Source: Takakia lepidozioides (Eukaryota > Plantae > Bryophyta). Taken from it: a stretch of 64,000 nucleotides of DNA. The stretch covers positions 5,394,001-5,458,000 of the forward strand of contig CM060731.1 of the NCBI GenBank assembly GCA_030704615.1, given 5' to 3'. The number at the start of each line of letters is the position of its first letter. The first letter of the stretch is position 1. The notes under the pieces are model-generated. The model saw nothing but the letters and a program-made list of their open reading frames with translations, was not told the DNA's origin and did not search any database. Of the stretch, positions 9,101-58,100 are shown in pieces. The position numbers and the translations under genes are program-made.

Positions 9101-9179
9101 GGCAAAATGAATGATTGTTGTATAATTAACTCCATTCCACCAATATTTGAGGTCATTTTTAAATCATTATTGTTAAATT

Positions 9180-14576: not shown

Positions 14577-15732
14577 CTACCATGCAAGCTTCCCCGTAAG
14601 CTTGTCTGACTCCATCAACCACTTGAGTGGTTGGTGATCCGTGACAAGGGTGAAGAGATTGCCATATAGATAGCACCTGAAGTGTGCCACGGCCCACACT
14701 GCAGCTAAGCATTCTCCCTCATATGAGCTATACTTAGACTCTGCAGCATTGTTCGAGCAGCTAGCATAAGCCACTACGAACTCTCTTCCTTCATCATCCA
14801 TCTGTGTGAGCACCGCTCCAAGCCCCAGCATGCTCCAATCTGTATGCAGCTGAAAAGGACGCCCCCTGATAGGTCGTCTCAAGATGAACGCCGAGGTCAG
14901 CCTTGCCTTGAGCTCTTGAAAAGCTTGTTCTTGCTCGTCTTCCCTGCCACTCCTGGTCCACCTTGGTCAGTTTGGTTAGAGCCTTTGCAATGGTACTAAA
15001 TCCCTTAACAAACCGTCTATAATAGTTTGCTAACCCCATGAAAGCTCGAACTCGGCTCACATTCGTGGGGCGTGGAATCTGTGCAATGGACTCTACCTTA
15101 GTCTGTTGTACCCCCAATCCTCCAGGATATATCATGTGACCCAGATACTCAATCTGGTTGTGGAAAAACTTGCACTTTCCCGGATGTAACTTCAATCCGT
15201 GCGTCCTCAAGCGCTCAAATACCCCCTGAAGGTGTCTCTCATGCTCCTCCACCGTAGCACTAAAGATGATGATGTCATCTATGTAGCACCGAGCAAACTC
15301 CACCCCTGCTAGAATCCTGTCCATGACTCTTTGAAACTCTGCAGGAGCGTTTTTAAGCCCAAATGGTAAGAACTGCCACTGGTATAGGCAATCCTTCCCG
15401 TGCTCATTGATCCCCCAGAATGTCGTCTTCTGCTTATCCGCCTCCTTGATCGGCAACTGGTGATGTCCGGATCGTAAATCCAAAGTGCTAAAGACCTTGG
15501 CATGCCCAATGGCATCAAAGATCTCCTCTGGTGTCGGCATAACATACCTATCGGACTTGGTCTGACGATTTACAGGCCGGTAATCACCGCACATACGTCT
15601 CTCCGTCCAATTGCCATAGACATCCTTCTTGGCTGGCATCACTGTGGCTGAAGCATACTCTCCCCCAGATAGCTCCACCAAACCAGCCTCCCAAAGGTCC
15701 TGAGTTCTCATCTGAATCAAGGACCTCTCCAT
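14577..15732 (-). pseudogene. Gypsy RT-RNase H, copy A
   Basis: RMCGDYR, LDLRSG, LPFGLKNAP, YIDD, LHPGKC, YLGH, TDWS, GECLA, TDHQPL. Confidence 0.95.
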
Positions 15733-23412: not shown

Positions 23413-23449
<37 letters not shown>

Positions 23450-24397
23450 TTAAATTATACATATATACATACACAGGTATAAGCTAAAAATACATGTTGC
23501 GCGTCTATTCTTGCTGTCCGTCAATCCTTTGCCCGTGGTAAGGCTTGAGCCCAAGATAAGCCTAAGGGAGAGCGAGAGAGGGAGAGAGAGAGAGGTTATC
23601 TATTAAACGGGGCCAGACTCGGTCAAGAGGGGATGAGCACTTGTAAAAGCGGGATTGTCTCTCTTTGTGGATGTTGGTGCCAATATATGGCTATGTACAT
23701 ATACCAAACATGATACCAATGTAAGAGTATCAACGTGTAAGAGTTTGATAAATTAAACTTATATAGAACACACATTCCAACTTCAACATGATACCTTTGT
23801 AAGGGTATCGAAAATTTTGATAATTCTCAAGATGAACATATTTTTTGTTTTCTTTGTACTCGGCCAGATACTAGTGTTTGGGGACTACATGGTGATGCAA
23901 GGGAAGCCTTTCATCAATTGTCAGGTTTGATTTTGTCTGTTTTTTTCGGAGCCAGCCATGTTTCTTTTGCCAGTGAATCACAGGAAGCTGCTGATTTATC
24001 TCTGGCTCTCCCTTTCTCGCTGAACCTGAGGGTGGTTTCTCAACTCCACAATTTCCTCAAGGGCACAAGAAAGAGGGCCAGCAAGAATAGACGGGCAACA
24101 TGTATTTTTAGCTTATACTCTTATATGTGTATAAATATAATTTGAATATATACATGTACATATATATTATATATTATATACAAAAATAAGTTAAAAATTA
24201 TAGATTACAATTCAATTGAATTGCCAACTAGCGATTCAATTGAATTGCGAGTTGAGTGTGCCGACAATTGAATTGAATTGCAAATTAGGGTTAGTTCAAT
24301 TGAATTGCCCTTGCAATTCAATTGAATTGCGCACTTTTAGGGGGTGATAAAGTGAATTGCCATGCATTTCACATCAAGGCCTTTTTGGAATTCCCTA
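23203..24397. mobile_element. Non-autonomous foldback DNA element with long (~300-400 bp) imperfect TIRs
   Basis: tagagaattccaaaaaggccttgatgtgaaatgcat... is mirrored by ...atgcatttcacatcaaggcctttttggaattcccta. Internal CAATTCAATTGAATTG palindromes and (TA)n. Flanked by TACATG on both sides (or a TA TSD if the ends are 2 bp inward). Confidence 0.85.
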
Positions 24398-31620: not shown

Positions 31621-33666
31621 TGAACTTTAATAATACCCCCGCAATTGGTCCCAAACGTCCAATCATCTCATGTGTTGTTGGTACTGCTTCACAATGGGGA
31701 AGTGGGTATGAGTCGGCGTGCATCACGGTGCCATTGCTCAACAAACAGTACAAATTCACGAGTTTGGAATCAACTAAATCAATGCTGCAACTTTGTTAGA
31801 AATATGCTTTCAGTATTGCAATCTACCTCTCTTCCCCGCCTATACTCAGATCTAGACAAAAAAGATAGTCAATTCGAGAAGTCCTTGCAAATGTGCTACG
31901 AGTTTACCGTTTCTTAAATTCATAGTACTGAGATCCTCCAAGTAATTATGCGGGGTTGTCCTTGAAGATAAAGATTTTGTTGTTTTTCTAAGATATCATG
32001 TACATAATCTTAGTATTTGGTTTGCGAATATGATTGAAGAGTTTGCAACGTAGATGGGTTGGTATGGGATATGAGCATTAACCCTACGTAAAACCCGTGC
32101 AGATCTGTGGGTAGGGTTATGATACTTAATATCTCGGACCACGACAAATAACACCTAGCTCGTCTTCAAGCATAACACCCGCGTGACCTAACATCGACCG
32201 GTGAGCTAACAACGTATCCACTGCTCACACCCGGTGGTTAGGGTTGTGATGTTAGCATCTAAGCACCTTAACACAAACATCATTCACACCTCGTGGTTAT
32301 TTGTTACCTCTATTTTCTGTTATCTTTTTTCCGGTGGTCCTGCTTGCCTCGGCGTTTGTCATATTTGTGATTAGTTAGAAATAGTTATTTCTAATTAATT
32401 AGGACATTATATATTTATATTTGTATTTTGTTGGCATTGGGACTTCATTTGGTTTTATGTGCCAAGTGAGGTGACGAACCTCACTTGGGACGTGAGGAGG
32501 TTATCTCCACGTGAGACGTAGGCAGGCTCGTCTTCTTCTAGTCGAGCCTCCCGAGGCCTCTCTCGCCGCCATAGCTAGAGTGGGTGAGGTCTGTATGGTG
32601 GAGTCCTTTAGCAAAGGTACCATTGGCTTGACTTATATAACGTGATAAAGTGGTTTCTCCTCTTTTCACCATTTCCGTATCACTAGAAGAAGACCTGCTT
32701 ACATCTATGAGTGCAAGGTATTAGCATAGTTAGCACTTGTGTATGGAAGAGAGCTTGGTAGATAGCTCTTAAGTTACAAGGTGTTGTAGGGTTTGCAAGA
32801 TGAAAGCCTTGTGGTGTTTATGTACAAGAGGAGGTCTTCAAGGAGAGCCCATTGAGAAGTTTGAGAGCTTGTGAAGAAGCTCTTGTTCTGCAAGTGTTGC
32901 AGGGTTTGAGGAGTTCAAGAAGAGCTCGGGTGTTAAGGGAGCAAGTGGTGCATGTGTAGAGCATGGTTTCAGCTTGTGGGAGTTTTCAACTTCAAGTTTA
33001 TGAGAGCTATGAGTAAAGGTAGACATCTGATTTCTCTTTGAGGCAGAATAGTGTATTTGTAGAGCATGCTTTGAGTTGGGGTTTCAATCCCAAGCTTGGA
33101 AAGAGCATGTCTATGGAAGTGACAAGTGCATGGCTGGATTAGGAGCTCTAAGAGGTGCACTATGGCCATGGAATGAAGCACTGTGATTGCATGCGATGGC
33201 TAGAAGAGGGTATGTCATAGAAAACTCAATAGCTTGTTCTATGCTTGTTTCAATAAGTTCTATAGAGAAACAGCGCTTGTTGTGTGGCAAATAGCTTGCT
33301 CAGGAAATGGTGCTCCTAGGCAGAGAAGAATGAAGTTTTGCTGCGGGAAACATTTTTCGTCAAGTCCAGGGGGTGCAGACACACCTGCGCGAATTAGAGG
33401 TGACGGCTACGGGGGTGGCGGGGAAGGAAACTGTACCCGACGCCTGGGATGGATGTAAACTCGTCAGGGGATTAGAGGCACTCTTGGTGGTCTATTGATG
33501 CTCAAGAAACCAAGAACAGCACCTCTGGTTGCTCCATAGAAGCCATAGCTCGTTGCAGCAATCGCAGAGGCAAAGCGGCGCAAACCCTAGCTAGGGAACG
33601 CGTGGGAACGAATGGGAACGCGTGGGAATATTGCCCCAGAGTTGGGAGCACCACCATTGTCCCATC

Positions 33667-34160
33667 GGATGAACTATTGAGCCAGTGGATGAAAATTGGC
33701 GCTCCTGGATGAAAATCGGTTGCAGTGGATGAAACTGCGCCAGCGGATGAAATCGTGTCAGCGGATAAACTATCGCGCTATCGGATGAAAAATCACGGCG
33801 ACGGATGAAACTGCGTCAGCGGATGAAATCTCGTCAACGGATGAACTATCGCGCTATCGGATGAAAAATCGCGGTGACGGATGAAACTGCATCAGCGGAT
33901 GAACTATCGCGTTATCGGATGAAAAATCGATGCGACGGTTGAAACTGCGCCAGCGAATGAAATCTCGTCAGCAGATGAACTATCGCACTATCAAATGAAG
34001 AATCGCGGCGACGGATGAAAAATTGCGGCGACGGATGAAATATCGCACCAACGGATGAACTATCGCGGCGGATGAAATATCGGACCCGTGGATGAGAAAT
34101 TGCTGTTTTGGATGAGATTTGGTCAGTGACGGATGAAAAATCGACTGACTGTGGATACTT
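33667..34160 (+). repeat. Tandem array of ~25 GGATGAA-core units, 18-20 bp period, CpG-rich, with a ~76-bp higher-order unit
   Basis: Direct reading; e.g. cggatgaaactgcgtcag-cggatgaaatctcgtcaa-cggatgaactatcgcgctat-cggatgaaaaatcgcggtga. Confidence 0.9.
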
Positions 34161-34470
34161 TTGGAGCCTTATGGGGGCTTGTTTGAGGATTATTTGGGGT
34201 CTATTTAGGCCAATATCTAGCAGACATTGGGACCCGTTTGAGGACTATTTGGGGTCTATTAGAGCCAATATCTTGTAGGCTTGTGGAGCTTGCTTGGGGC
34301 TATTTGAAGAACTATTTGGGGTCCTTTGAGGCCAATGTTTTGCAGGCCTGTGGAGCCTTGTGAGGGCTGGTTGAAGGACGATTGGAGGTCTTTGGAGGCC
34401 AATACTTGGCAGATTTGAGGAGCTTCTTAAGGGCTGTTGGGGGACTGTTGGAGGTCCTTGGAGGCCAATT
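34160..34470 (+). repeat. Degenerate tandem repeats (ttggggtc...ggccaatatcttgcagg...)
   Basis: About five diverged copies of roughly 60-70 bp directly upstream of the gag remnant. Confidence 0.7.
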
Positions 34471-36320
34471 CTCGTATGGGATATTGGACAAGGAGCTGAG
34501 GAGAAGGGTGCGGGATGCAACTCTCCTACAAGTGGACCAACCCACCTTAACAAACGTGTTTTTGCTGGCAGAGCGGATAGAGCTCAATATGGTGGAGGAG
34601 CAAGTGGTCATGGTGGGGTTTGGTAAGGAGACACAACGAAGTGGGGCTCCTAGCCAACAACAACCACTACCCCAACGTGCTCAAGGCAACAAGGGGGCTC
34701 AGATGAAGCCCAGGGAAGGACAAAGAGGATCTCAATTGCAGAGGTCACTTCCTTCATTCTCAGGCCAACAACAGTCGGGTGTGACATGTTGGGATTGTGG
34801 AGGACCCCATGTTAAGAGAGATTGCCCGGAGAGATGCAAAGGGCCGACACAGGCACAACCTACACAACTACAGTGTGGGCATTGTGGCAAGTATGGACAT
34901 GAAGAGACCCATTGTTATGACTTGCATCCTGAGCTACGGCCAGGCTAGTTCCAAGGGAACAATGGTGGCCGAGGACGAGGCAATGTAGTCCAGAGAGGTA
35001 GAGGAGGCAGAGGTCGTGGTGGAGGTCGTAACCAAAACCAAGGAGCACAAGGTCAAGGTCAAGGTCATGAGCAAGGCATGGTGGATATGCTTGCCCAGCT
35101 AGAGCAACGTCTTGCTGCCATGGCCACTACTAATGTGGCGTCAGCTCCAAGGCCTGAGGTTCAAGCTCCACCTGCACAACCTCCTATGCCTAGGGACGAC
35201 CAGATTGGTATGGGCTTCATGTGTGGAGCCGCACTTGCTGGACCATTGCATGTGGACTCTGCAGCTGCTGTCACTCGAGCAGCAACGCGTGCTCCTGAGC
35301 CAAGAGGACCAGATGTGGATTTTGATCCACAAAGGAGGGAAGCAAGTCGACAGACAAGGCTTCCACAGTCTTTCACATTGGCTGAGACAGTGCCAACTAC
35401 GCCATCGATGGTACCCGCTCACCCAAGTGTGTCAGAGGTAGAACCACGAGTATCAGTGGGGAGAGTTGGTGTGGCTCGGGAAATGCCAGTGGGTGATGCT
35501 GCAAAGCAGGGTGTAGCCAGTACATTGTTGGGGGCGGCTACGGTGATTTGCCAAGCTCCATTGTTTTCTGCGATGATCATTGCAATGCCGGGGATTCGGC
35601 CAGCTGTTGTGTTCAGACTAGCAGCTAGACTTTGTGAGAGTGGTGATGCATCGGCACTATCTGCGGGGATAACGGATAATGTGCAGTGCATGGATGTCAT
35701 GGACTCAAGGGTGAAGACAGCCACAGCTGCACCATGGCAAGCGGCAACTGCAAGGTTGCAAGAGTTGTCAACTAGACCAGCCATTGAGCGTAGTATGATG
35801 ACTCATGGGGTAGTCCTGGGGGACAATCAGGATGGTGTGTTTCAGTTGGGTGGCCCAGCCGGGAAGAGGTATAGGCTACTATGGGTCTTGTTGGACTCGG
35901 GAGCACAACCATTGATGTTGGGAAGAACAGCAATTGCAGGCTTGGGCCGTACAGAGGCGGATTTGGAGCCTTATCCTTTCCAAATTCAAACATCTTTGGG
36001 TGGTTCAGAGAAGGCACGAGGGATTACACGCCATGAATTCTTCATTCGATTGCAGCCAGATCATCCTACGGATGGCTCAGTCATGAGAGCTAAAGCCATT
36101 GTTACGGACGCGATGTCATATGATGTGCTTGTTGGTGGGGCTGTGTTATACCCCATGGGCTTTACTTTGGACTTTTGGGAGGAAACGACATCCTATAGGC
36201 CGGAATGGCAGTCAGGAGATGGCCGACGTGCACTGCTCTCAGTGCAGTTTATTGGGAATGTAGCGGTGGATCATAGGAACATGATGCCCACATTGGCTGC
36301 ATTTTCAGGGGCGGTGAGCT
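34470..36320 (+). pseudogene. Gag C-terminus plus aspartic protease, copy B
   Basis: CWDCGGPHVKRDC, CGHCGKYGHEETHC, RGRGGRGRGG, LLDSGA...YDVLVG. ORFs 34382-34948 and 35078-36457 are in the same frame, separated by a single TAG. Confidence 0.88.
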
Positions 36321-36553: not shown

Positions 36554-37879
36554 TTGGACACGGTGCCCATTATCTGGCAACCACCTGACACAGGGATTTG
36601 TTTGCTAGACCTGTTTGGAGGCATGAGCACTAGGCTTGCAGGAGTGTTGCAAGCAGGGATTAAAGTACACAAGTACTTGTATGTGGAGAAGGATGAGATC
36701 GCTCGACGTATTTCTATGTGTCACATCGCCTTGCTCACACACCGGTATCCTGAGTTGTTGCCTCTCTCAGCAATTCAAGGGTATCAAAATGCCTTGCCAG
36801 CAGACATTACCTTGCTGGGGGCGGATGATTTGGACCGGTATGGTTCCATTGACTTGGTGATAGCTGGATGGCCTTGCCAATGACACTCTCCCGCAGGTCA
36901 TGGGAATGGCTTGCATGATGCACGATCGCATTTGTTTTGGGAGATGTTGCGAGTGTTGCGGGACTTGCAGACGAAACAAGTGCAACCTCTAGGCTATATC
37001 TTGGAGAATGTTCTTCTTATGGGGGATTCTCGGGCCAGGGTAATGGCCAGTGTGCATCAGGTGCGGTCTTGGATTGGATCGGTGGTGTTATTGGATACAG
37101 CAGCGATGGGATCACACGCGCATCGACCTCGATTGTGGTGGACCAATCTTGCACCACCAAAGCTACTTAAGAGAGCATACGATTCCATTCAACGGCCACC
37201 CAATCTCACGGTTGAAGGCATTTTGGACCAAGGGAGGCAACCACAGAGAGTGCGACATGATGATCGTCCACCTCTAGCAGTGGTCAATCGAGTAGGGCAG
37301 CCACGTGCGGCCTTGCCTACGCTCATGAGCTTTCCCTCGTCTCATGCTTTCCAAGACAATGGTCCTAGGTTGATTTGGGACAGTGTGCTACAGCAATTGG
37401 TGGGGCCCAATGCGGATGAACGAGAGCGGGCAATGGGATTTGCCACCGGCACTACAAATGTGCCAGCTCTGTCAGCGGCATCACGCCGCCAAGTGTTGGG
37501 TCAAGCAATGGATTTAAATTGCTTGACATGGATAATTGGCTTGTGCATGGCTGAACAACGGAGATTGCAAGCATTGATGGCTACTTCTACACTCCCATTG
37601 GATGGTGCATCCTCCCTGCCAACCGGGACGGTTGAGGCAGTGAGTGGGGGCGAGCACAGGATCGTGGGTTGCAAACACCCATGGAAGATGTGGGATGAGA
37701 TGCGCAAAGAGATAGTCATTGGATCTCTCAAGCAGCAGTATGAGGAGTGGGAAGAGCCATGGACTGAGGATCAGTTGGAGGCCAAGGTGGCCAAGGTTTT
37801 TGAAGAGGTTGAGAATATTTCTTGCTCAGAGGATGTTCTCAAGGTGGCTATGGCGGAGCAACTGGAGGCTACGCCATAA
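36554..37879 (+). pseudogene. C5 cytosine methyltransferase domain (DNMT3-like), copy B
   Basis: LDLFGG, YVEKD, ADI, IDLVIAGWPCQ(stop at 36881-36883)HS, ILENV, AHRPRLWWTNL, ERERAMGF, RRQVLGQAMD. Both ORF halves are in one frame. Confidence 0.92.
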
Positions 37880-38077
37880 TCAGATTGGGCGGACAAGGCC
37901 CAAGAGGTTGTTATCTAGCAACCAAAGGATTCGTCTCTTACCTCCAAGCCTGGTGTACCCAAGGTTGCAGTCACTAAGGACAATTGGGAACCAGATGTTG
38001 GACCTACAGTCACCGGAGGAGAGAGATGGAGGATCCAGCGATTTCTAAGGGCTTATAGAAATTGCTTTGCCTTCGGT

Positions 38078-39248
38078 TTGAAGGATTTGGGAAGTTTGAA
38101 GGGTCAGGAGATTCGTATTGATTTGGCAAGTGACACGCCAATCTTTCGAAGGCCCTACCAGTATAGTGACATGGAGAGGTCATTGATCCAGTCACGGACT
38201 ATGGAGTTGTTCGAAGCTGGATTGGTGGAGTTGTCAGGCGGGGAGTATGCCTCGGCAACGGTGATGCCAGCTAAGAAGGATATCTATGGCAATTGGACAG
38301 AAAGAATGATGTGTGGGGACTATCGTCCTATGAACCATCAGACTAAGTCCGATAGATATGCCATGCCAACTCCAGAGGAGATCTTTGATGCCATTGGGCA
38401 TGCAAAAGTGTTTAGCACATTGGACTTGCGATCCGGTTACCACCAGTTGCCAATCAAAGAGGCTGACAAGCAAAAGACGGCATTCTGGGGGATTGACCAA
38501 CATGGGAAGGATTGTTTGTATCAATGGCGGTTCTTACCGTTTGGGTTGAAAAATGCTCTTGCAGAGTTTCAGAGGGTCATGGATAGGATTCTCGCAGGGC
38601 TAGACTTCGCCCGGTTCTACATTGATGATATCATCGTCTTTAGTGCTACGGTTGAGGAGCATGAGAGACACCTTCAGGTGGTGTTTGAGCGCTAGCGCAC
38701 AGGTTGAAACTGCACCCCGGAAAGTGCAAGTTCTTTCACAATCAGATTGAGTATCTGGGCCTCATGATATACCCTGGAGGATTGGGTGTTCAACAGACAA
38801 AGGTGGAGGCCATTGCATGCATTCCACGCCCCATGGATGTGAGCAGAGTTCGTGCTTTCATGGGATTGACAAACTACTATCGACGGTTTGTCAAGGGATT
38901 TAGCAACATTGCAAAGGCTCTTACCAAGTTGACCAAGGTGGGTCAGGAGTGGCAGTGGGAGGAGGAGCAGGAGGAAGCCTTTGAGGAACTCAAGACTCGA
39001 TTGACTTCTGCACCTATTCTGAGGCGGCCTTTCCAACTATATACGGATTGGAGTATGCTGGGGATTGGAGCAGTGCTCACACAGGTGGATGATGAAGGAA
39101 GAGAGTTTGAAGTGGCATATGCTAGTCGCTCGAACAATGATGCCGAGGCGAAGTATAGTTCTTATAAAGGGGAGTGTCTAGCTGCGGTATGGGCAGTGGC
39201 ACATTTCAGATGCTACCTCTATGGCAATCTCTTCACCCTTGTCACGGA
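38078..39248 (+). pseudogene. Gypsy RT and N-terminal RNase H, copy B
   Basis: MCGDYR, LDLRSGYHQ, LPFGLKNA, YIDD, TDWS. Ends at the insertion site in LVTD. Confidence 0.95.
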
Positions 39249-40078
39249 CCCGGGGGGTGCACTCCTCATTAAATGTACCAGCCACGTGCGTGCACAGGAG
39301 GGGGTATTTTAAACCCCCCCATGTACAACATTATACATACAGAGGGGGGTTTAAAACACCTTAAATATAATTTTACAGGAGGGGGTTGTTGAGTTTTTAG
39401 GGATAGTGTAGTGGTAAGAATGGCGATTCCGCCGCAATGCATCCTGGGATCGAATCATGGAATCGTCGTTTTGTATGTTTGTTTTTTTTTTTTTTTTCGC
39501 TCCACGATCTTTCTCCCCTGACCTCCCGCGGCTTTCTCTTTTCTTTCTCCTCCTCTCCCGCGTTCGCCTTCCCTTCCGCGGGCTTTCTCTTTTTCCTCCT
39601 CTCCTCTCCCCTCCTCTCCACAGGGCATGGTAGGACAATGTGGTGAGGGCACCAGAATGTGGTGAGGGCACTGACTTGGGAGAAGGTTTGAGGTTGTGAT
39701 GTATGTAGAGGGCAGGAATCGAAGGGGATGAAGTAAGTGCGCGGGAATGTGGGGCAGGCCTGGGCTAATCGGTGATGATATGCGGGTGTGGTGGCGGATT
39801 GTTGTGCAGCAATGACAGGAGGACATGGGCATCAAGATTCCCAGTCATCAGAGGTAATGAGCACATTAGGCCTATTTTCTTTCCTAATAATGATTGGCGT
39901 GACACAATGGTTGTACTCACTGTATCAGGCCTATTCTCATCCTTATTGAATCCAAACAGCCAGAGGGACAAGATGCCCCTAAGTGTACAGAACCTGAACG
40001 TCCTGAATCTGAAGGATTTGGTACTCAAGAGTTTACACAAGACGAGCAAAATCTACACATGGGGTAACTGTCCCCCCT

Positions 40079-42088
40079 TTGCAGAACGGTTGGGCGTCCA
40101 GGAGCAATCCCAAGCTACCTAGACGACAAACAATTCACATGCAAAGGGCTGGCTTGCGGCTGGCCATTTTCAACTTCTCAGGGCTTACTAACCAAAGGAA
40201 ACAACTCGAAGTGGGACAAGTCCTTCGGACTAATGATATTCATATCTGTGCTGGGCAAGAAACATGGGAAACTTCGGATAAACTGGTTGGAGATGTCAAT
40301 GGTTATAAATGGGCAGGTAGAATGTGTACTCTCAAGGAAGCCTCTGCCAAACGCGGTCAAAAAGGGGTTGGATTCTTTGTCCGTGATTTCTTGTTTGATA
40401 ATTGTGAAATTATCAAAAAGGGTTTGAGGTACGAACATAGTATCTGGCTAAAACTGAATCTGAAGGGTGGCATGAGTACGAAGGACCTCTTTGTGGGTTG
40501 TGTTTACATGCCCACAGAGGGGACCCTTAGTGTTGACGCAGACAAAGCCTTCGAAGATGTAAAGCTGGACTGTGCTTCGTTCCTTGCCAAAGGTCAGGTA
40601 GTGCTATTGGGTGACTTCAATGCCCGGGTGGGCAAAGGGCTCCATCAGGACGATATCCCATGATAGAGGCCCTAGTTCTCCTCTTTAACCTTATCTGGAA
40701 GACTGAAATGATCCCCTTTTGCTGGCGACAGGGGGTCATTGTCAGTCTATACAAGAAGGGTGACAGAGAAGAACCGGGGAACTACCGTGGCATCACACTC
40801 AGGAGTTGATTAATTGCGCGAAGCGATACTTTGATCTTTGGGGGCTAGAGGCTAATGTCAGCAAATGTGCAGTGGTAGCATTCAACGACAGAGGAGAGGG
40901 AGGAAGTGATCTTAAGTGGCAGTGGGGTAGCCAAGAGATCCCGGTCCTCCCTTCCTACACTTACCTGGGCGTTGAGTTTTCCTCCAATTGTAATTGGGAT
41001 GCACATATCCGGAAAGTTGTTCGAACTGGCAAGGGCAAAGCTCTGGGGCTCACTAAAATTTTTCACTGCAGAGGGGTCATCTCTGAGGTTAAGAAAACCA
41101 TGCTTTGTCGCGTTATTAGACCTGCCTTGGAGTACGGATCTGCTATATGGGTTGATAACTCCAACCAGGCTAAGTCTCTAGAATCCATTCAAGTGGGGGT
41201 GCTTAAGGAGTGTATGTCAGCATGCTCCAAAACAGCCAATGTGGCTGTTCGGGGTGAGTTTGGCATTCCATCCTTAAGCTCCCGACGAGATGAATTCAAG
41301 GTCAGATGGTGGGGTCAGCTGCAACATATGCCCAACACCATATATCCTAAGTTGATTGACTCTATATCTTGGAAACAGGACCGCCCTGTCAAACAGGCTA
41401 AGTCCTGGCAGAAGAGAGTAGAAAAGATTCTCAAGGACCTGGACCTGGATCCGCAAGTCTTGACCCTGCTGGATAAATCTGCCTTAGAGGCTGTAGTGTC
41501 TGAGGCCATGTCTGTTGCCATGAGATTGTCTGATGAAAATGAAGTTAGGCAGAGAACTTCCCTGAACTTGTTTCCAGTCAGTGACATGGGGGTGGACATC
41601 TTGGATGACCTCAAGGGTCTACCCACTCTCGGCACTAGACTGAAATTTAAACTCAGGGCAAGAAGCCTACCTTTGAACAGCAAACAGAAGCAGAGAGGAA
41701 AGGGAGAGTGCAATTGTCCGTTGTGTGGGCAATCTGAAGACAGTATTCATTTTCTGATACGCTGTCCGGGTTCTCTCACCAAAGAGAGGCTCTCTTCAAT
41801 TCTATCAAGGGAATTGTGCCTGTACCCCTGTTTACCAACTTTGAAAGTCTCGAGGCTGAGCCAAAAGCCCAGGTCCTCTTGAGGCCTAGTTTTTGGGCAA
41901 ATCACACACAACAGATTGATGCTTGTGTGAAGGGTTTTCTAGAGGATATCTGGAAAACCCGGATTAATTCCTTATACGATGGTAAGTCTTACTACCAACG
42001 TCAGCCCTGTTCCTTTTGTTCCCACTGAAACTGGGCGTGGGGTCAATGGCCACAAGGCTACGGCAAACAACGTCTTATGAGTACAATC
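40079..42088 (+). mobile_element. LINE family 2 (RTE/RTEX-like), internally deleted, with intact 3' end
   Basis: APE (FNFSGL, GQETW, LLGDFNARVG), jump to LYKKGD...NYRGITL, jump to post-YADD RT thumb (NVSKC, YTYLGV, RPALEYG) and a C-terminal Cys/His motif (CPLC...HFLIRC). Confidence 0.85.
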
Positions 42089-42599
42089 TCATCCTTATCA
42101 TCCCTCGCCTTTTGGAAAATTCCAGCCATAATTGAAGGGCAATTGGTTGTTGTACTTAACTGCATGAATGTTCCCCTTTCTGTTGGAATGAGCCGCACGT
42201 CCTTTCCATGCTGACATACCCTTTCTTCTTCCTGCAGGATCCTTTGCCCAGCCCTGTTATTTCTATCATTTGTGCCATCCTCTTGGTGTTTCCACAGCCT
42301 CCCCTCATTGCCAGTGAAGTGTTTCTTTCTCTTCCCTTTGTCTTTAAAGACACTCCAACTGTTAGCTGCAGTACCCTTCGCTGATTTCTTATTGCCTTTG
42401 ACCTCATGTATGTTTTCAATCATGTTTGAAGGGTGATCACTTGCTGCCATATGCATGACTGTGTCCTTGACTGCTTCTCTTGTCTCAGTATGATGTTTAA
42501 TTGTTGTCATGTCAGGCTGTGCTCACCTGCACCGTGGTGTCTTCAAATGGATCAATTTTTCAGACACGGTCTTGCCAACTGAATGATGCAGGTTCACTT

Positions 42600-43228
42600 G
42601 GGAGAGTGCACTCCCCCTTTCCTCTCTGCTTCTGTTTCATGTTCAAAGGTAGGCTTCCTTCCCTGAGTTTAAATTTCAGTCTAGTGCCGAGAGTGGGTGG
42701 ACCCTTGAGGTCATCCAAGATGTCCTCCCCCATGTCACTGACTAGAAACAAGTTCAGGGAAGTTTTATGCCTAACTTCATTTTCATCAGACAATCTCATG
42801 GCAATCATGGCTTTGGACACTACAGCCTCTAAGTCTGATTTATCCAGCAGGGTCAAGACTTGCGGATCCAGGTCCAGGTCCTTGAGAATCTCTTATACTC
42901 TGGCCTTGGGAAAACACCTTTTGATCTCAGTCCAGAAAGTGGTCAGAGGTACCAATATCAGTTCTGTCGATCAACACATTGGCACACTGGGGGAACAAAT
43001 TTTTGTCCATTATGATATAGTCCACAATGGAACGTTCCCCAGTTTGGGATTTCTCACGAGTCCACTGCACTTGGTCACCTCTTGTCTTGTTAATCAAGGT
43101 CAAAAGCTGAAGCTCTTCCAGACAGTTAATTAACCGTCTGCCATTAGAATTCAGCTCGTCCTCACCAGAAGACCCAATGATATCGTCCTGATGGAGCCCT
43201 TTGCCCACTTGGGCATTGAAGTCACCCT
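42600..43228 (-). mobile_element. Second internally deleted fragment of LINE family 2, inverted
   Basis: GDFNAQVGKGLHQDD...IVDYI...SDH joined to sequence matching 41415-41712. Confidence 0.85.
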
Positions 43229-43763
43229 ACAATAGCACCACAGAGATGAAGAGAAGCTTTGGAATGAGACACTTTTCTGACCCCAGTCAATGGTGGGACA
43301 ATGTGGGTCGGATGGTCAACTGGAAACAGCAGCGGCAACAGCGCAATTGATAAAGCAAGGCACTGCTGATGAAAGGTACCTTCTTCAACGTATTTCAGCC
43401 TGAGGGCACCTTCTGGTTTGACCTGTTTCAGCCTGTTTTTCCCTCTCATCAGACTCAGCCCTGAAGCATATGTATTGAATTCTGTAAGTTAGCTCGTTGG
43501 GTGGATCTGCGGTGCTCTGGAGTGACTTTGCAAGTTGCTGCCGAGGTGGTAGCATGACAGTACCTAAAAAAAGATAATAGATAGAACAAGGGACTGCTAA
43601 TGAAGGTACCTTCTTCAAACAGGCTAATGAAGGTGTTCACTATGCAAGGTGTCACATACAAATGCATCTGAGCAGAAATTATAGGTGATGAGCTTGTCTC
43701 AGCAAAATTTCATTTCATTTCCATGGGGGGGGTAGTGTCCTTTCAGCCAAGCAAGAAGAGAGG

Positions 43764-46700
43764 ATGGTTCTAAAAGGGGATACTGTACACATTAAGATTT
43801 TAGACCAAAATGATGGGGACCAAGGATTGAAAAGACCTCTATCTTCCAGTGGTTCTACGATCTTGCATGAGGACAGACCAGGCAAGGACCCGGCACCAGT
43901 GTCTACCAAGATGAGGATGGACCCTGATACACCCTTTGCTGGCGATGGTGGAAATGAAGACCATGCACATGAGCATGCACTTCAGCAAAGATCTGGTAGA
44001 TTGTGCAATACGTTGGCTACATCCAACGATATTCAAAAATGGCAGAAAGAGATTAGAGCCGTTGAAAGGAAAATCTCTGCAGAAGGACGATGTGACAAGT
44101 TTGAGCTGATGACAAAGGACCAACAAGGACAAGCAATGTTCCACATATGGTGTGTTGAGTGTGAGGATGTTTATGCACGGTCTGGGAAAAACAAACCATA
44201 TGATGCATGTGCAAACTTTATGAGATCTCATTTGAGGAGTGAGGGGGCATCGCATAGCCTATGAGAGGCGTCATGGGAAGGGTTCATCACAATGTGTCAT
44301 CAGCCCTGTAAATGCAGATGAAGCATTAGACGCAAAGAAGAACAGGGTGAAGGAGGCATTAGAGGAAGTCGCTCAGTTTTGTGAGGACAATCCTGGAAAC
44401 AGATTTGAGATTGTGGAAGCCACAATTGGAGACTATTCGCAGTTGGGTTCCATAAGGATTAGGTGCCCACTGGATTCGAAGTGGCTACTCTTGTTTCCAA
44501 GGACAGGTTCTTTGCAATCTTCTTTGACAGAGCATGTGAAAGGAAAAACTCATGTCAATGCAGAGATTTGCCAGAAGGTTGGAAGTAGTGAAGGACCTTG
44601 CAAAAAGAGAGGAAGGCCTCCAAAGCCTATGATTGCCAAAGATGTAAAGCAACGGGATCTAAGCTCTTTCTTGGTCAGTCAACCTGTGTTGTCGTCCCCA
44701 CCACTTGACAATCCAATTGTGGCATCAACAATGGGAGCATCCTCGTCACAAACTCCATACGCTTGTGTTGACGCTGCCCAACGGGGAGATCTGATCGAGG
44801 ATTGACAATTACAGCAAAGGTCCCAATGCAACAAAGGAAGAGACAGTTTGTGTTGGGGCCTATGGGATGAATGGTGGGAGTACAACCAGCAGAGAATAAG
44901 TCTGAAACCATTCCTTCAAGATAGCAAGGGAGGAAAGAAGTGGTATGTCGAGCCGTTGACAAATGCAACCATCACTCTAAACAATCAAGAGCATAAGGTT
45001 GTTGGTACATTTCGGCACGCGGATTGTTTTAGAGTGTCATTGGATGGGGAGCCATTTCCAAACTTGAGATGTTCACCATGTTCTTCCATTCCCTTGGAAA
45101 ATGACTTCAGAATGAGGGTATATAGAGAAAGAGGTGCCATGGAATGTAGAGGGGAGAGAGATACTGGCAAGGGAAGAAGGTTGTCATATCTTGGAAATGC
45201 GGAGATTGTCAAACAAGTTTACAAAAACAGACAGGAGTTGAGGCAGTTGAGGTTCAAATTGTGGGAGGCCAGGACCAAAGTGGCATCATTGTCTGTGCGA
45301 TGTAGGAGTTTGAAGGAGTCTGGGATTGAGGCAATTGAAAGAGGAGATGTTCTCAAATTTTGTCGTGATATTGTTGATGCACATAGGAGGGGGGATTTTG
45401 AAGGAAAAGAAAGTTTGTGGGATTTTCTTGTTGATATGGGCAAGAATATTGACAGGTCTCCACAAGGGAAGAGGTATGGTACTAGCACAAAAACAATGTT
45501 TGAGACTGTGCAGCTTTGGGGGGTCCGAGATTGCATCATTTTTTGGCTTCAAATGTGGGGGGTCCTTCTATTGATACTACAAGACGGTCTTTGAGGAAAG
45601 GTTTGAAGTATAGAACGGGAGAAACAGATGATATATTTCAGCATGTGGCTGGAATTTACAGAGATGTGATGGAATATGCAAATATTCCATTGGGAAGCAT
45701 CCCAGTGATGGTGGCCGAAGATGAAACTGTTGTGAAGCAATTGGTACGTTGGATTGCTAGGGATGACACCCTTCTCGGGTTTTGTGGGCTTCAAGACAAC
45801 CATGTATGTATTTCAAATTTTGTGGTGCAAGTGGGAGAAGGGGAATCAGGGTACCAACATATTGTGGAGGCATTCAAAAACAATGTGGTTGCCCATTATG
45901 CTAGAGTGTTGATAGCAAATCCTCTACATGTACAGTTACCTCGATTGGTATTGGTAATCCAGCTCACTTGCAATAGATTTGACAACAATTTTGTGAGATC
46001 ACAATGGGAAGTGGTGAGACAGTTGTGGGACAAATATGTGAGGGACGTGGTTGGGCCTATAATTGGGCATGCTTCAGACGGAGATAGTAGGAGGAGAAAA
46101 GTGATGTTAGAAGATTATGCCAATGGGGCTGGAAATAGATTTTGCATCCCTTGGGAAGGATGGTTGTTTACAGGTCGAGTGTGCAACGGGGGAGATATAT
46201 ACGGACTCCATGATCAGGACTTCATCCACAATGGGAAAAAATTGGTAAATCCCTTGGACAGTGCATCACGGACTTTGGTGTTGGGTGATGAGGTTGCTAC
46301 ATTGAATCATGTGTTATTGGTCTACCATTCATTTTCAGTGGACAAGCATGGACTTCGGAATGTGATATCAAAAGAGAAGATCGACAGAATTGGGCAGCAG
46401 CTCAACGACTGGCATCTCGGAAGGTGCAAGCTTATTTGAGGGAGTTACAATCAACTGTGAATCATCGAAGAGAGAGGACCAAAGGTACTGAAATTTACCT
46501 ATACATCATTTCATGCTACATCGACATTTTTTTGTCTCCTCACATGTCATTGTGTGAGAGGGTACAATCTGCTGCGAAGGTATCATTTTTTTCAGATTGT
46601 GGAAGTTATGGCTATTCCAGCACGAGGTGTATAATCTGAAATCCTTCTTCATTAGCAGGGAAGCATACTTGGATTTACAAATTTCATGCCACTACGTGGT

Positions 46701-47976
46701 TCTACTTATCAAATTGGTCAAGGATAAGTTTAATCATGTGCAAGTTCCTTTGAGCCTTGTTGGTTCAGATGTGTGTGATATATTCTTCAGCAAAGTGGGA
46801 GTTATGTCACGGAATGAGAGGACATATGACGGGTGTGATTTGATTGAGAGTGCGGGAGCATTAACACGCATATCCGAGTTCGAGGCGAATCCAAAAGGAC
46901 CCAAGTTCTCAAGAGCTCACAAGAAACAAGAACACATATGGTCTTCTTTGGAGAAGAAGCCAGGTATCCCCCTTGCTGATTTGTCCGACTTTTCTACTGT
47001 CCAATCGGATGATTGCATTGTGGAGGCTTTGAAAACTGGATTTCTAGAAGCGCAACTTTTATGCCATAAACTTGGGATGAAACCAAACAAAACAACAAAC
47101 TTGGATTGGTGGAATGAGCCATGGACAATTGAGAGACAAATGGAGGTCGAGCTATTCAAAAGCATGGAAGAGGAGGGTGATGATGTCAATGCCATAGATT
47201 CTATTTGTCCTCTTAATGCAGACACACATATTCAAAATGAGGTTGTGGAAGATGAATTGGTGTGCGGGCCTTCGAATTCAATGGAGGATGTTTTGAGCCA
47301 ACCTTTGGATGATCATGCGGAAGAGGTACTTGTTCAAAGTGAATTGAGACATACTCTGGATGCTGTCATTGATGAGTTTGAACAAGAGAAAGATGGATCG
47401 AAGGCAGTGGTTCCATTTGTCAAAGTAGACGGGAAGACCATATTCAAAAGCACTTTGGTTAGCCAACTCAATGGCAACCCTACTCTATCCAAGGATAGAT
47501 TGACACGAGTAAGAAGTGCATCGATGTTGTTTTGCCGAGAAAACAAACCAACTACCAGCAACAAAGCCACGAGCTTGGGATTGGGTTCGGATTGTGCTGT
47601 ATTTTTTGTTGATGGGGAGACTGCGATCCAAACTACAAACATGAAAGGTAGACCAGGGAAAACCTGCAGAGGAACAACCAAAGGCACTTGGTATTTGGGC
47701 AGGGTTCAAAGAATGCGGAAGAAAATCAATAAGCGGTTTGTAGAATGTAGGGATTCTGTTGATTTATTGGAGCGTCATTCTCATATGGAGATTGGATTAG
47801 CATGGTACCAAAAAATTCGAGGAGGGGTCTATACGTACGATTTGACGGATAACATGATGGTTGATTTGGATTCCATTATCGCGTTAGCATGTTTAAAGTA
47901 CAATGTCAAGTCAAACACATATGTTCTTGATGCAAATGACCGAAAAGTCTTTGACAACTTTATCAAAGGCAAATAA
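43764..47976 (+). pseudogene. P-element-like DDE transposase (six ORF pieces, ~1300-1400 aa if joined)
   Basis: N-terminal Zn-finger-like motifs and an AT-hook (KKRGRPPK). Core GGPSIDT, VAEDET, GHASDGD, DQDFIHNGKKLVNPL (DxxH) and GSDVCDIFFSKVG, in the order and spacing of P/THAP9-type catalytic motifs. Confidence 0.7.
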
Positions 47977-48286
47977 TTTTTTTAATTAATTTGTTAGATT
48001 TTATTATGTTTTAAATGAATAAATTCGATATAATATAAAAACATACATATACATATTGGAGGGTTATTTTTAATGATGAAAAATGAGAATATACATACAT
48101 AAGGGGGTACTTTTCGAAAATTGTAAATTTTTGTATATTTACAGGAGGGGATTTTATAATCTTCAAAAAGTATGTACAGAGGGGATATAAATTATCCAAG
48201 GACCCATATACAGGGGTTTTTTTATTAGGCGACGAACGCACGTAATACGCACAGTTTATAAAGAGTGCACCCCCCGGGGTCACGGA

Positions 48287-50043
48287 TCACCAACCATTGA
48301 AGTGGTTGATGGAGTCAGACAAGCTTACAATGAAGCTTGCACGGTGGCCACTTATGCTTCAAGAGTACGACTTCCAGGTGGTGCATCGAGCCGGTATTGC
48401 CAATCGGGATGCAGATGGATTGAGTTATAATCCATGCACGAGCGAGCATGATGATACTGGAGCTCGGTGGCATGGTGAGACGGATGAGGAGATGGTGCCA
48501 GGATGGCATACATCGGTCTTTTTGTGCATTCTAGCAATGGGCTCAAGTTGGTTCATCTCATGTGATTGGTCATGTAGATAGCGTGCATGACGATCCAGAG
48601 ACTAGTGAGGAGTTTGGTGGTGCTAAGGATGTACATGAAGATGCAGCAGTGTTGGCCTACCTTCGTACTGGAGAGACAGTAGCCAGTGTGACTGCTAAGG
48701 AGAGAGATCGGATCCTACAACGAGCCAAGAGGTTCAAGTGGGAGGGGACTCACCTACTCCGGGTATGGGAGGATGGACGAGTGATGATTGTGCCTCATCC
48801 AACACAACGAGCGCGATTGGTACGCCATGCCCATGAGGAGTTGGGACATTTTGGGGTGCGGCGCACTCATAGTTTGCTGCAAGGGCAGTATTGATGGGGG
48901 GACATGCACACGGATGTGCAATAGTTAGTGGCAAGGTGCATGGTGTGTGATAGAGTGCGGGCTTCTTTCAACGCCCCTACTCCATAATTGCATCCTTTAC
49001 CCATTATGGGTTTGGGCTATCGTTGGAGTCTTGACTTTGCAGGCCCATTGTCATTGACGATTCGTCATAACAAGTATGTGTTGGTGATGGTGAAACACTT
49101 CTCCAAATGGATTGAACTGGTCGTATTGCCTGACAAGGCAAGTGATGGGGCTGCATATGCATTCTTAGATCGAGTGCTTAGCCATTTTGGTGCTCCAGCC
49201 GAGGTACTCACAGACCAGGGGAGAGAGTTCTTGGGGGAGTTTCAGGCTTTGTGTGAGCAAGCCTTGATAGATCACCGCACTACTTCTTGGGATCATCCCG
49301 AGGCTGATGGCTTGGCGGAAAGAGTTGTTCAGACAGTCAAGAGAGGTTTGCGCAAGTACGGTTTGCAGAAGGGACACCTAGGAGATTGGGACCTTCAGCT
49401 GCCTTGGCTAGTTATGGGCTATAGGTTCAGCAAACAAGCTTCACTTTCCTCCTTCTCACCTTACTTTCTTCTCTTCGGCCGAGAGCCGGATTTGCCTGCA
49501 TCTATTCGCAGGGAGGCTGCAGTAGTTCTCAACCTTGATGATCCGGATGTGTGGACACAAGCATGTGCCCAGCGGGCAGAGTTGTTCAAGAGAGTCATGC
49601 CTATGGCTTTTGAGAACCTTGCTATTGCCCAACATCGAGACACATTGAGGTACGCCACTATACGTGGAGGGGGATATCGGCCAAGTGTTCGACGTTTCCA
49701 CCCTGGGGACTATGTGTATTTGCAGCAGACAGCGACTACGACCTTAGATGTCACAACAGGACATGTGATTCTAAGGGTCAGGGAGGTGTTGCCTTCAGGA
49801 GTGTTGATTCTGGAGGGTCGAGATGACATGGTATGGAAGGACCATGTGCGCAATTGTGCGCCATGTCACCTTCCACATGTGGATGGGAGGATAGATCTCA
49901 ACCTTGCAGTGGTACCTGCGGGGTTGCGTTGCATGTTATGTGGGCATGCTGGTGGCGCCGCAACCATGTTGGTGTGTGACAAATGCTCAAGGGGGTGGCA
50001 CATGGGATGCTTGACACCGCCACGTTTGCACCCGACCTCTTGA
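48287..50043 (+). pseudogene. RNase H C-terminus, integrase and PHD finger, copy B
   Basis: HQPLKWL...ADGLS, HEELGHFG...CMVC, WSLDFAGP, TDQGREF, GLAERVVQT, CMLC...LVCDKCSRGWHMGCLTPP. Confidence 0.93.
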
Positions 50044-55145: not shown

Positions 55146-58100
55146 ATGCTCATCCGCACACAAGTGCATCGTCATCTGCGGCCATATCTCAGGCAGCGGA
55201 GCTGCATTGTACTCCCTCATTATATTTTGAAGGGCCCTTGTCCCGTTCATGTCCACCTTGGCCTGTGTTCATCTGACAGAAAATTCAATCACGTTGATCA
55301 AACCGTCGGGTTTAGGGTTCCCAAACATGGAATTTCTTCATCATCTTTCCATTTCTGGGCTTCAAAGCAAGTGCCGCGACCGTCGTCTGAGCATCAGAAG
55401 ATTTCCCTGGTAGACGGATTTACATTCTCGAGAAGCTGGCCGTATTTGTACAGGGACACTGCGCATGGGGTGTTGCGTCAAGGCAACGACCTTTCGTCGT
55501 CCCTGGAGAAAAAGAAAGGGTTCGATCTCCACAGCAGACAGCGAGTGTACTATTCAGCAGGGGCAGGGGCAGCGACCTTGCTTATGTTCATCGCTGCATC
55601 GGCTGCAATCTCTATGTCCGCTGCTGAAATGCATGGAATTGCGCTCTCGGGATTCTTGGCCCTCTACGATTCTGCAGTGGAATTTGCAAGGAAACTGGCT
55701 GGGATAATGTGGAGCTTCGAGGGGGCAATGGTGGAATCCATTGTAGATTTTGTGGAAGCAGGTGCGGCCGCGTGGGTGCTGGTTCGTTGCCTGGCTTCAG
55801 TGCTTGCATCAGCTAGTGACAGTGCGACACTTGATGCGTTCGCCTTGTGGCGACCGAGGGTAGCATCTCTACTGGCAGGTGTGGACGATGAAATGTCACT
55901 TAGAGCTCTTGGTCAGTAGGTAGCAGCATATAGTAGTCAACTGTGGCTGGAGATCTGGCTGGAGATCTGTCAATTAGGTTACTGCCTCTGTCAGGAGGCT
56001 TGGAAGTGATACCATCCCGCGTCTTGGCGCTGCTGATTTGCTTACATTTATAGCTTATCCATCCCTTGGCATGATAGAGGGGGCATAACTGTGTCGATTT
56101 CTTCCCCCACAGACTTCAGACCTGTAGGAACTCAATCTGGCAATGCCCAAACCATGACTGGATGGACCACAGAACTAACCTGTAAAGGTCGAGTGCATGT
56201 CCAAACACCTTCAGATGTACATTTCAATTTCAATGTTGCAGTCCTTCAATTCTGATTGCTCATTGAGGGTAGACTTACTCCAATTAACTGTCTAACGATT
56301 AAAGAGAAGCTATGGTGGCGCAGATCTTGCAGCACATGAGAACCGGAGAAAAGCTGTGGTGGAGTCAGGGAATGGCGCAGTGGTGGACTGGCTGTTGAAG
56401 GCTGTTGGAGGAGGCAGGTATGGTTTGCATGTAGTGCACGCCAACTCATAAAAAATGTATGTTTCCACCACTACTCATGGGATATTGTCTTGTTGACAGG
56501 CCATGTAAAAGGAAATCTCTTTCAGCTATGTGGGAAGGCCTTGCCTTCTAGTGGTAGCAATCTTGGCAGGCCATAATAGATGTTTTAATTTCATGGCAGG
56601 CCGGCGTGCATGGTGACCCAGGCAGAGGCATCAAGGGCTCTTGCTCACCTTCTGTCAGACGTAAACACATGTGAGAGTGTGTTAGGCAGGCCGCATGCTT
56701 TGCCCTACTTGCTACACTTTGCGGCTTCCCTGCAACCTCGTGATGCCATTGAGGTTTGTGACAATATGCACCATGTTCGTTTGTTGTATGGTAACAAGTC
56801 TTTGTTAGGTACTGACTTGGATTCCTACAGGCCCTCTCTGCCCCATGGGCAGCCCACTGAGCCTCCCTTGGAGGTAATGGAATTCTTCTCTCCATTGATG
56901 CAAACACCTCTGGGGATCTGATCTCGATAAGAAGCTTTCCAGATGAGATAAATTTTACCTGTTTGGTGTGTTGCTTTTATGCACAGTGAGATTAGTAGCA
57001 GGAGTAAGTGTTGTCACATGGTACATTTGCTTATGAGAACTTCATGAAGGGACTTTAGCTTTGCATAGTGCAAAGAATATACATGCATTAAATTGTCATG
57101 TAAATTTGGAAGTGCTGGAGGCTGTCTGATGTGCATCTGTATTTGTCACACGGAGCTGAATTCTTATTGTGTGGTAAATTTGGATGAGTAGTGGAGAATC
57201 TATAGGGTGATTACTCTTAATATTTTCACTATCAATAAATTTGGCTGCAGAGCTTGAAGCCAGGGAAGAAAGAGCACGTGACACAAGAAGGGGGAGAAGT
57301 TCCAAGAGGAAAGAGTCTTCTTGTTGCAGCTATAATGGACCTGATCACCTCGAGCTGTGATTCTGGGGATGCCTTTGCAGGATTTCGTCCCATGCTTCCA
57401 GGTTTATACACTCACTCCACACATCCTTGAAATACTAGATTCCCAGTTTCTTTTGTCAAGTTATTTCTATGTTCCATCCCCTGTCCCTATCTTTTGTGTA
57501 TCGCCACAGGGCTAGCTGTGTATTGTACATGATTCATACCTGCATCCGGGACACAAATACACATCTCTCCTAATCAGGTGTTGTTGTGATTGGGTTAAAT
57601 TCTACAGGGAAAGCGGACCCAGCAGATGTTGTGACAGCTTTGCAAGTGGTGGGGGGTGGCTGGCTCACAGAGGACGAGGGAAATTCTAAGGGAAAAGATG
57701 GAAAGGATAGAGGGGCGGTTTCTGTACCTGGAACATTAGTGCATCCAGGCACAGACGTTGTTGGCATCCAGAGAATGGAAGAGTTCTTTTCACAGGTTGC
57801 CATAGCTGAGTGGTGCAAAAAATCTGCACTTTTTATCATGGATTTTTGGGCCTTGAAAAGTCCATTAGGACGCAACTTGGGGGGCAGAGAGACCTCAGGT
57901 CCTGTTGGGACTGTGAAGTCTCTGAGGGTAGAAGGCACAGAGGATGCCAGAGGGATTATTAAGAAGAGGTCTAGTGGAAGCTCTGGTAGCAGCTATGGTC
58001 TGTGGGATGACCTTCCAGGTCTATATGTTGCAGTGCCATTGGCAGCTTGGGCACTTGCCACATGGGCACAGGCCTCAAGTGCAAACCGGTCAACAATAGC

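Follow-up and report, generated by a model that had tools for sequence, protein, structure and literature searches.

A broken cut-and-paste transposon with a predicted P-type transposase fold in Takakia lepidozioides

We analysed a 64,000-nucleotide stretch of Takakia lepidozioides DNA (contig CM060731.1 of assembly GCA_030704615.1, positions 5,394,001 to 5,458,000), hereafter the window, in which a 9,030-bp DNA element at 39249-48278 lies inside a Gypsy long terminal repeat (LTR) retrotransposon (Table 1). Both termini of the element and the flanking duplication can be read directly in the window. The terminal inverted repeat (TIR), CCCGGGGGGTGCACTC, is perfect for 16 bp and shows patchy similarity up to about bp 41, while the target-site duplication (TSD), GTCACGGA, is 8 bp long and allows no extension on either side. 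The insertion splits the RNase H region of the Gypsy element, whose nearest named relatives are found in Calypogeia (80%), Marchantia, Sphagnum and Klebsormidium and by themselves point to a seed-free land plant as the most likely host. A paralogous Gypsy copy elsewhere in the window retains the empty site, with flanks that are about 81% identical to those of the element on both sides. The original prediction had described these TIRs, the exact duplication and the empty site, and all three were recovered here (16 of 16 bp, the duplication present twice, and a single 8-mer in the paralogue). In addition, the empty-site form, in which position 39240 is joined to 48279, was found in contigs from two of the four sequencing runs. 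The right end joins at least three other flanks in contigs (in run X5 and in X1 and X2, two runs of a single sample), and is thus present at several sites. No pair of 12-bp TIRs with an adjacent 8-bp TSD occurred across 20 shuffled windows; the real window holds a few further such pairs, located at foldback or AT-repeat sites. The sequence at 39249-48278 is confirmed as a real copy of a cut-and-paste-type DNA transposon.

Subterminal repeats are present at both ends and share the same strand. By analogy with P elements, those on the left are likely transposase-binding sites. In the terminal 250 bp of four complete elements (this copy and three metagenomic relatives described below), we counted 19 plus-strand instances and one minus-strand instance of a loose G-rich motif, compared to at most 0.5 per 250 bp in their interiors; as the motif was picked by eye from these same ends, the counts are descriptive. 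Summed contig depth is higher over the final 250 bp of the element, which weakly hints at short derivatives or sister families; contig depth was never taken as copy number.

The 5' 4.4 kb of the element carries two pieces of a long interspersed nuclear element (LINE), about 3.2 kb of debris that had been overlooked in the earlier reading of this part. The first piece gave no reverse transcriptase (RT) match, and loose contig ends at 42085-42090 coincide with its 3' end; the second matches PF14529 at E 3e-5, below the cut-off. Contig depth over the LINE-bearing intervals 39625-40019 and 42063-42634 resembles that over the transposase, a weak hint that the debris is shared by several element copies. 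Downstream of the LINE pieces lies the transposase gene, split into six open reading frame (ORF) pieces that are collinear with intron-free relatives of 1,423-1,530 amino acids. Its lesions comprise frameshifts at about 44243, 45517, 46356 and 46590 and a stop at 44803-44805, and the window copy is dead or non-autonomous. In-frame forms at 44243, 45517 and 46356 are seen in contigs of two or three runs carrying the same species label, reflecting either intact sister copies or assembly errors in the window. The gene begins at about 43,700-43,770 rather than at 45,516, where the original prediction had started the transposase; that prediction also overlooked the N-terminal part, how broad the family is, and the C-terminal barrel, which is conserved and BAH-like. 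By analogy, we infer that the N-terminal product of 44100-45081 is a putative end-binding region. A 1.6-kb contig covers 46277-47805 with 21 differences and 14 gaps; it comes from a run guessed to be RNA and was not used as evidence of expression.

Table 1. Coordinates of the element, its target and its internal features in the window
Feature	Position	Strand	Remarks
Empty site in paralogous Gypsy copy	14638..14645	-	One copy of the 8-mer
Target Gypsy LTR retrotransposon (RT, RNase H, integrase, PHD finger)	37919..50043	+	
Left target-site duplication GTCACGGA	39241..39248	.	Single copy at paralogous empty site
Left 16-bp terminal inverted repeat	39249..39264	+	
Three left subterminal repeats, ACAG..GGGG type	39293..39385	+	At 39293, 39338 and 39374
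Internally deleted LINE	40013..42090	+	Endonuclease ORF (PF03372); 3' end at ~42090
Second LINE fragment, inverted	42501..43241	-	Same family, 90-93% identical to first
Broken P-like transposase gene	43692..47976	+	~1,400 codons
N-terminal region	44100..45081	+	Two Cys/His zinc-finger-like motifs, KRGRP (AT-hook-like), conserved Cys cluster
First catalytic Asp (AEDET)	45720..45722	+	On model strand beta-1; invariant, 99/99 aligned relatives
Second catalytic Asp (SDGD)	46077..46079	+	Placed by strand end in model; 101/103 relatives
DxxH signature	46218..46229	+	Start of helical insertion domain
D-x-x-E motif	46768..46779	+	P: D528/E531 by spacing
C-terminal beta-barrel, BAH/Tudor-like	47563..47960	+	Approximate bounds
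Right subterminal repeats	48140..48218	+	Same strand as left ones, not inverted
Right 16-bp terminal inverted repeat	48263..48278	-	
Right target-site duplication GTCACGGA	48279..48286	.	

The window transposase belongs to a large family. A search with its 311-residue core ORF returned 108 longer proteins, and a profile search detected 6,069 clusters (50% identity) at E <= 0.001 among 1.84 billion representatives. Named matches, a minority of the rows, come from Riccia sorocarpa, R. fluitans, Calypogeia fissa, Adiantum nelumboides, Nymphon striatum and Mytilus edulis, each annotated merely as a hypothetical or unnamed protein, and include none from algae or seed plants. None of the pattern matches in viral (25) or prokaryotic (81) contigs was confirmed as a relative, and the viral structure library yielded just a hAT protein of Pandoravirus (E 9e-4). 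Viral contigs also gave three exact TIR 16-mers, each a lone match that was inspected for its local context only and was taken as chance. Some relatives (P0232, P0240, P0247, P0099 and P0104) carry extra Tudor (PF21743), SAP, C1/FYVE-like finger or Ulp1 protease domains, which at the level of sequence suggests repeated capture of chromatin-related modules.

To define the ends of the family, we examined 80 metagenome loci, 40 of which were subjected to an unbiased TIR/TSD scan; the majority of the contigs are too short to hold both element ends. Three loci carry both. L009, the sole convincing element in the unbiased scan, is 6,096 bp long, with 26-bp perfect TIRs (CTCGGGGGGG...), the TSD GTTTTCAT and an intact 1,520-codon ORF, while L042 has the TSD GTTACAGC and a broken ORF, and L011 has CCCGGGGGGAGCACT ends and a 1,517-codon ORF. 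Thirteen short 5-6-bp pairs from the scan were dismissed as chance. Matched 8-bp TSDs are thus present in three of the four elements with both ends (window, L009 and L042), and the agreement among them indicates that the end type and the 8-bp TSD are family traits. All three matched TSDs begin with GT; eight single flanks, read by eye, include AT, GC, GG and CG starts, and with only three TSDs and such mixed flanks no target consensus is claimed.

The catalytic motifs listed in the original prediction were located in the window at 45714 (AEDET), 46074 (SDGD), 46218 (DxxH..KK..N) and 46762 (GSDxxD). Within the DxxH signature, D is conserved in 98 of 100 and H in 96 of 99 aligned relatives; since C/DxxH is also found in hAT, MuDR, Kolobok and Dada, this signature is not specific to P. 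The third catalytic position, previously left as D or E, is a D in the window (46777-46779), unlike the E found in 81 of 82 aligned relatives. The Asp three residues ahead of it, equivalent to D528 of P, is kept in 77 of 82. In the numbering of the intact relative P0005, which is about 55% identical to the window transposase across the core, the triad is D389, D509 and E746, at places that match P, and the spacing from the second D to E is 237 residues in the family compared to 228 in Drosophila and 245 in zebrafish. The likely D444 place, assigned by motif analogy, holds D or E.

We then modelled P0005 with AlphaFold2 from a 103-row alignment, at a predicted local distance difference test (pLDDT) score of 83. 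The predicted structure runs from a long helix and a helix-turn-helix (HTH) through an RNase H fold that carries a helical insertion to a C-terminal part made of helices and a terminal beta-barrel. The helix at 215-262, a coiled coil, and the HTH precede the catalytic domain and align to P residues from 128, and the DDE triad lies within the RNase H fold with the helical insertion following beta-5. Foldseek matched the model to the Drosophila P transposase at E 1e-10, to RAG1 at 1e-4 and to Hermes at 6e-4. In the VIA comparison, the P transposase structure 6P5A aligned with Z 26.9 and a root-mean-square deviation (rmsd) of 4.4 over 415 residues (model 268-781, chain 128-566), followed by Transib (Z 11.1), the hAT transposase Hermes (8-9, up to 9.1) and the MULE-like ISCth4 (7.4-8.9); the same gap in Z between P and the others was repeated in a 48,161-chain search that did not involve Foldseek. 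The window's own 280 amino acids also rank 6P5A first, with a modest Z of 9.8 against 7.2 for the next chain, as a partial domain. In the ESM Atlas, all ten of the ten best family-bearing matches belonged to a P-type family or clan (top score 0.93, with PF21787 on 21% of that cluster's members). Among the Pfam families listed for 45 diverse members, only P families match more than one member (PF12017 in four, PF21787 in three), and two relatives, P0037 and P0238, exceed the curated Pfam cut-offs for P families. The structural check that was able to overturn a P reading, run on the P0005 model, favoured P over hAT and MULE, and the earlier assignment to the P superfamily is upheld by the best structural match.

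Comparison with the P superfamily (P, 1360/Hoppel, Galileo and THAP9/Pdre; structures 6P5A and 6PE2) extends the likeness beyond the fold. Shared features are the predicted coiled coil, HTH, split RNase H, helical insertion and C-terminal domain, a D-D-E triad with DxxH and a D three residues before the catalytic E, short TIRs with subterminal repeats, and a 3'-terminal G. The 8-bp TSD also agrees with that of the superfamily, given in published accounts as 7-9 bp and mostly 8, and the GT start of the three matched TSDs recalls the consensus target sites reported for P (GTCCGGAC) and Galileo (GTANTAC) (PMC2577343, PMC4168063). In contrast, the family proteins are 1,000-1,530 amino acids long and intron-free, where P has 751 amino acids and four exons; the left and right sets of subterminal repeats share one strand; and the family has an extra C-terminal barrel, lacks THAP and occurs in land plants. 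hAT (Hermes), Transib/RAG1 and MULE/IS256 (ISCth4) share an RNase H core with a helical insertion, and differ in reaching a Z of merely 7-11 and in having other ends.

Several observations weigh against a place within P. The full-length fold test rests on P0005 and not on the window copy, and structural-alignment identity to the P transposase is only 14-15%. Two family profiles (103 and 58 sequences), run against the PDB with matches admitted to E 10, miss the P transposase, and PDB sequence searches with the window ORF, these profiles and two relatives found no transposase at all. The Pfam scan of the window ORFs gave no significant P-family match, and no THAP match was obtained in the window ORFs, in 21 and 36 relatives or among the families listed for the 45 members. 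The family ends in CCC (window, L011 and L042) or CTC (L009) with a G-run, whereas P ends in CAT; zebrafish Pdre2, with CATACC, has only the first C and the 3' G in common with them, so the claim that the termini depart from canonical CA ends stands. The left end of L042 has two additional C, and L011 has both TIRs in place and unmatched flanks. The interval from first to second D is 120 residues compared to 73 in P and holds conserved Cys/His, and the N447 place, set by motif analogy, is variable among relatives. Finally, the ranked chains held no Kolobok or Dada transposase, so the fold ranking leaves both out. THAP, for its part, has been stated to be absent from plants and fungi, and therefore does not define P outside animals. 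With CAT ends and THAP both missing, the family is at best a divergent subgroup of P.

Were the element a hAT, MULE or Kolobok transposon with atypical ends, the 8-bp TSD and the C/DxxH motif would be accounted for, as both are common to these groups. The fold refutes hAT and MULE (Hermes Z 8-9 and ISCth4 7-9 against 26.9 for P), no hAT or MULE family appeared in Pfam scans of 21 and 36 relatives or among 25 of the 37 families listed for the 45 members, and the TTAA duplication of Kolobok is absent, the family TSDs being variable 8-bp sequences; we regard this explanation as extremely unlikely. A fold so much nearer to P than to the other ranked transposases points to a P-related lineage rather than to hAT or MULE. 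Harder to set aside, and still unlikely in our judgement, is a separate superfamily, sister to P, that works in a P-like way with other ends, another DNA-binding domain and another tail. Its appeal lies in the failure of profiles to converge on Drosophila P, a terminal consensus of the family's own in members within and outside the plant clade, a conserved C-terminal domain of its own in 134 of 139 full-length members and the sheer size of the family, at 6,069 clusters. The members that exceed curated P-family cut-offs do so in a homologous region, TSD length and fold agree with P, and in Repbase practice converging groups such as Sola1-3 are treated as subgroups of one superfamily. We place the family within P, likely as a deeply diverged subgroup.

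P elements have been reported from Chlamydomonas. Published accounts also place them in animals, Trichomonas and a few fungi. Repbase or Dfam could already list the lineage, under P or among unclassified elements with an 8-bp TSD, from a bryophyte, fern or cnidarian genome; we lean against this while giving it appreciable weight. The family is large and present in public genomes, and transposon libraries published as supplements to genome papers on bryophytes, ferns or algae could contain it. On the other hand, the named matches carry only hypothetical or unnamed annotation, a search of the open literature by title or abstract start returned no paper on the family, and P is left out of two lists of plant DNA transposons: six TIR superfamilies for land plants in a 2022 review (PMC9033089) and seven DNA superfamilies in a 2019 paper (PMC6839031). 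These lists also agree with the earlier statement that P falls outside the usual land-plant superfamilies.

To place the window copy among its relatives, we built an IQ-TREE phylogeny of 57 core sequences, rooted at the midpoint only and leaving out the partial Riccia models P0097, P0105 and P0107. All 14 named plant rows (liverworts and fern) form one clade with the window (support 99/99), apart from five animal rows, three of which we take to be animal from the style of their identifiers. The window groups with the fern rows (96/91), one plant lineage unites Riccia and Calypogeia (100/99), and a FastTree of 212 rows agrees on the plant clade (0.992). A single deep plant clade with several liverwort and fern lineages argues that the family, judged from these sequences, is old in land plants, and the separation of that clade from the animal relatives leaves a recent transfer from animals unsupported. 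The suggestion of an ancient lineage in the original prediction is thus compatible with the tree, while its alternative of horizontal acquisition finds no support as a recent event. A transfer of the plant elements from an aquatic animal would fit the patchy named range of liverworts, one fern, a sea spider and a mussel, the lack of any named algal or seed-plant match, and the comparable plant-plus-aquatic-animal pattern described for GingerRoot (PMC6839031). The plant clade is nevertheless long-branched and holds deep lineages, such as that joining Riccia and Calypogeia, so that any such transfer would be very old, and with no true root and most rows nameless the tree allows no donor to be named. 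We consider this origin improbable. GingerRoot itself is a parallel in host range: like the present family it comprises DNA transposons of seed-free plants and aquatic animals that catalogues based on angiosperms missed. It differs in its integrase-like, unrelated enzyme, 6-bp TSD and 100-150-bp TIRs, and its published distribution does not extend to ferns, whereas the present family is found in one (PMC6839031).

Weighing these points, we consider it very probable that the window holds a broken cut-and-paste element with a predicted P fold, belonging to an old, diverged P subgroup common to seed-free land plants and aquatic invertebrates.

The C-terminal barrel, preceded by the family motif KSTLV..L..N..LSKDRL.RV at 47446, corresponds to residues 971-1092 of the P0005 model. 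Its best alignments are to BAH domains (AIPP3 Z 8.4, Rsc2 8.2, EBS 8.1 and DNMT1 8.0), with Tudor and chromo barrels lower (Z <= 7.0), and in searches with the whole-protein model BAH-containing chains account for ten of the highest-ranked non-transposase rows (Z 7.2-8.4). About 80 residues of the tail align to BAH domains, including those of AIPP3, EBS/SHL, Rsc2, DNMT1, ORC1 and TNRC18, with an rmsd of 2-3.5; unlike in a full BAH domain, just the barrel core aligns, and a Z of 7-8 is usual for common folds. A 14-sequence tail profile run against 177,635 PDB sequences at E <= 10 gave a single, non-significant match, to the TNRC18 BAH domain (E 0.99), covering the motif GDCAVF...YIGRIQ. Pfam BAH matched 0 of 14 members at E up to 1, and the ESM Atlas offered no named family for the tail. 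The structural and profile lines are both weak and agree, which favours BAH, and we hypothesize from the model that the barrel is a BAH-like predicted chromatin reader. Of 139 relatives that reach at least 280 amino acids beyond the core, 134 have the tail, and the tails of plant-clade members are homologous to those of the others. Transposons with fused reader domains have been described, most of these domains being Chromo or PHD as far as summarized in bioRxiv 2021.11.30.470311; our literature search of titles and abstract starts returned no BAH-transposase fusion.

The structural likeness allows a mechanism to be proposed by analogy with P, and on the basis of the model we predict with high confidence that the transposase would work like P. 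In P, D230, D303 and E531 cut and join DNA with target cuts 8 bp apart, and GTP held in the insertion domain touches the terminal G (PMC7776569); the residues described as contacting GTP are D528, K385, K400, V401, S409, F443, D444 and N447, and P transposition is described as GTP-dependent, with a 17-nt staggered cleavage of the ends. In the present family, the N-terminal zinc-finger region, as a substitute for THAP, would bind the subterminal repeats, the coiled coil would dimerise the transposase and the HTH would grip the TIR. The D/D/E residues would then cleave the element at its two ends and link these to target DNA at a stagger of 8 bp, possibly with a weak preference for sites starting with GT. 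All four complete elements have the 3'-terminal G with which GTP makes contact in the P complex; together with the conserved D528 equivalent, this makes GTP-assisted strand transfer by the family plausible. In the weakest step of the scheme, the C-terminal barrel would likely bind chromatin in a BAH-like manner and may steer insertion.

Other features of the window lie outside the element. Within the Gypsy element, upstream of its RT, an ORF at 36884-37879 (+) shows a weak match to C5 DNA methylase (PF00145, E 0.0013, below cut-off) together with ENV and RxR-type motifs. Methyltransferase-carrying Gypsy elements are known from charophyte algae, and if the match is true, finding one in a land plant, here with a PHD finger following the integrase, would be noteworthy. 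Three ORFs without Pfam matches at 57574-60289 (+) resemble host-gene exons with helical repeats. A 1.2-kb foldback at 23203-24397, with 81-nt inverted arms (96%), CAATTCAATTG internal repeats and TACATG on both flanks, is possibly a miniature inverted-repeat transposable element (MITE), and a 1.4-kb foldback at 3649-5093, with long nested inverted arms (87-94%), includes the 3' end of the LINE family also found inside the element. Tandem arrays occupy 33649-34472 (GGATGAAA-based units of about 20 nt, then 67-nt units) and 9160-9863 (units of about 52 nt with GGTGGTCGCAA hairpin-like cores). At 29505-29941, 54-nt inverted arms (78%) lie 329 nt apart with a tRNA-like start; Rfam gave no match in the window, this feature included.

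Taken together, these results would bring a P group into the DNA transposon repertoire of land plants, for which the lists in PMC9033089 and PMC6839031 name six or seven superfamilies, P not among them. A family of thousands of clusters was overlooked by Pfam and sequence profiles and was placed by fold search only. A bolder proposal, which we hold as doubtful in its entirety, is that it forms an unnamed ancient P-related superfamily or major subgroup, older in seed-free land plants than the divergence of the liverwort classes and also widespread among aquatic invertebrates, in which other zinc fingers replaced THAP, a BAH reader aims insertions at marked (repressed, repeat-rich) chromatin, and intact, likely active members are available as tools. 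Two questions can now be put to the test. One is whether the GTP cofactor, known to date only from P and THAP9, is ancestral to the group as a whole; the other is whether a transposase of the cut-and-paste type can select its targets by means of a histone-mark reader of its own. Elements such as L009, with an intact single ORF and defined ends, lend themselves to simple assays and may provide a native tagging tool for bryophytes and ferns, and if BAH-aimed insertion is true, the family would be the DNA-transposon counterpart of chromodomain-targeted retrotransposons.

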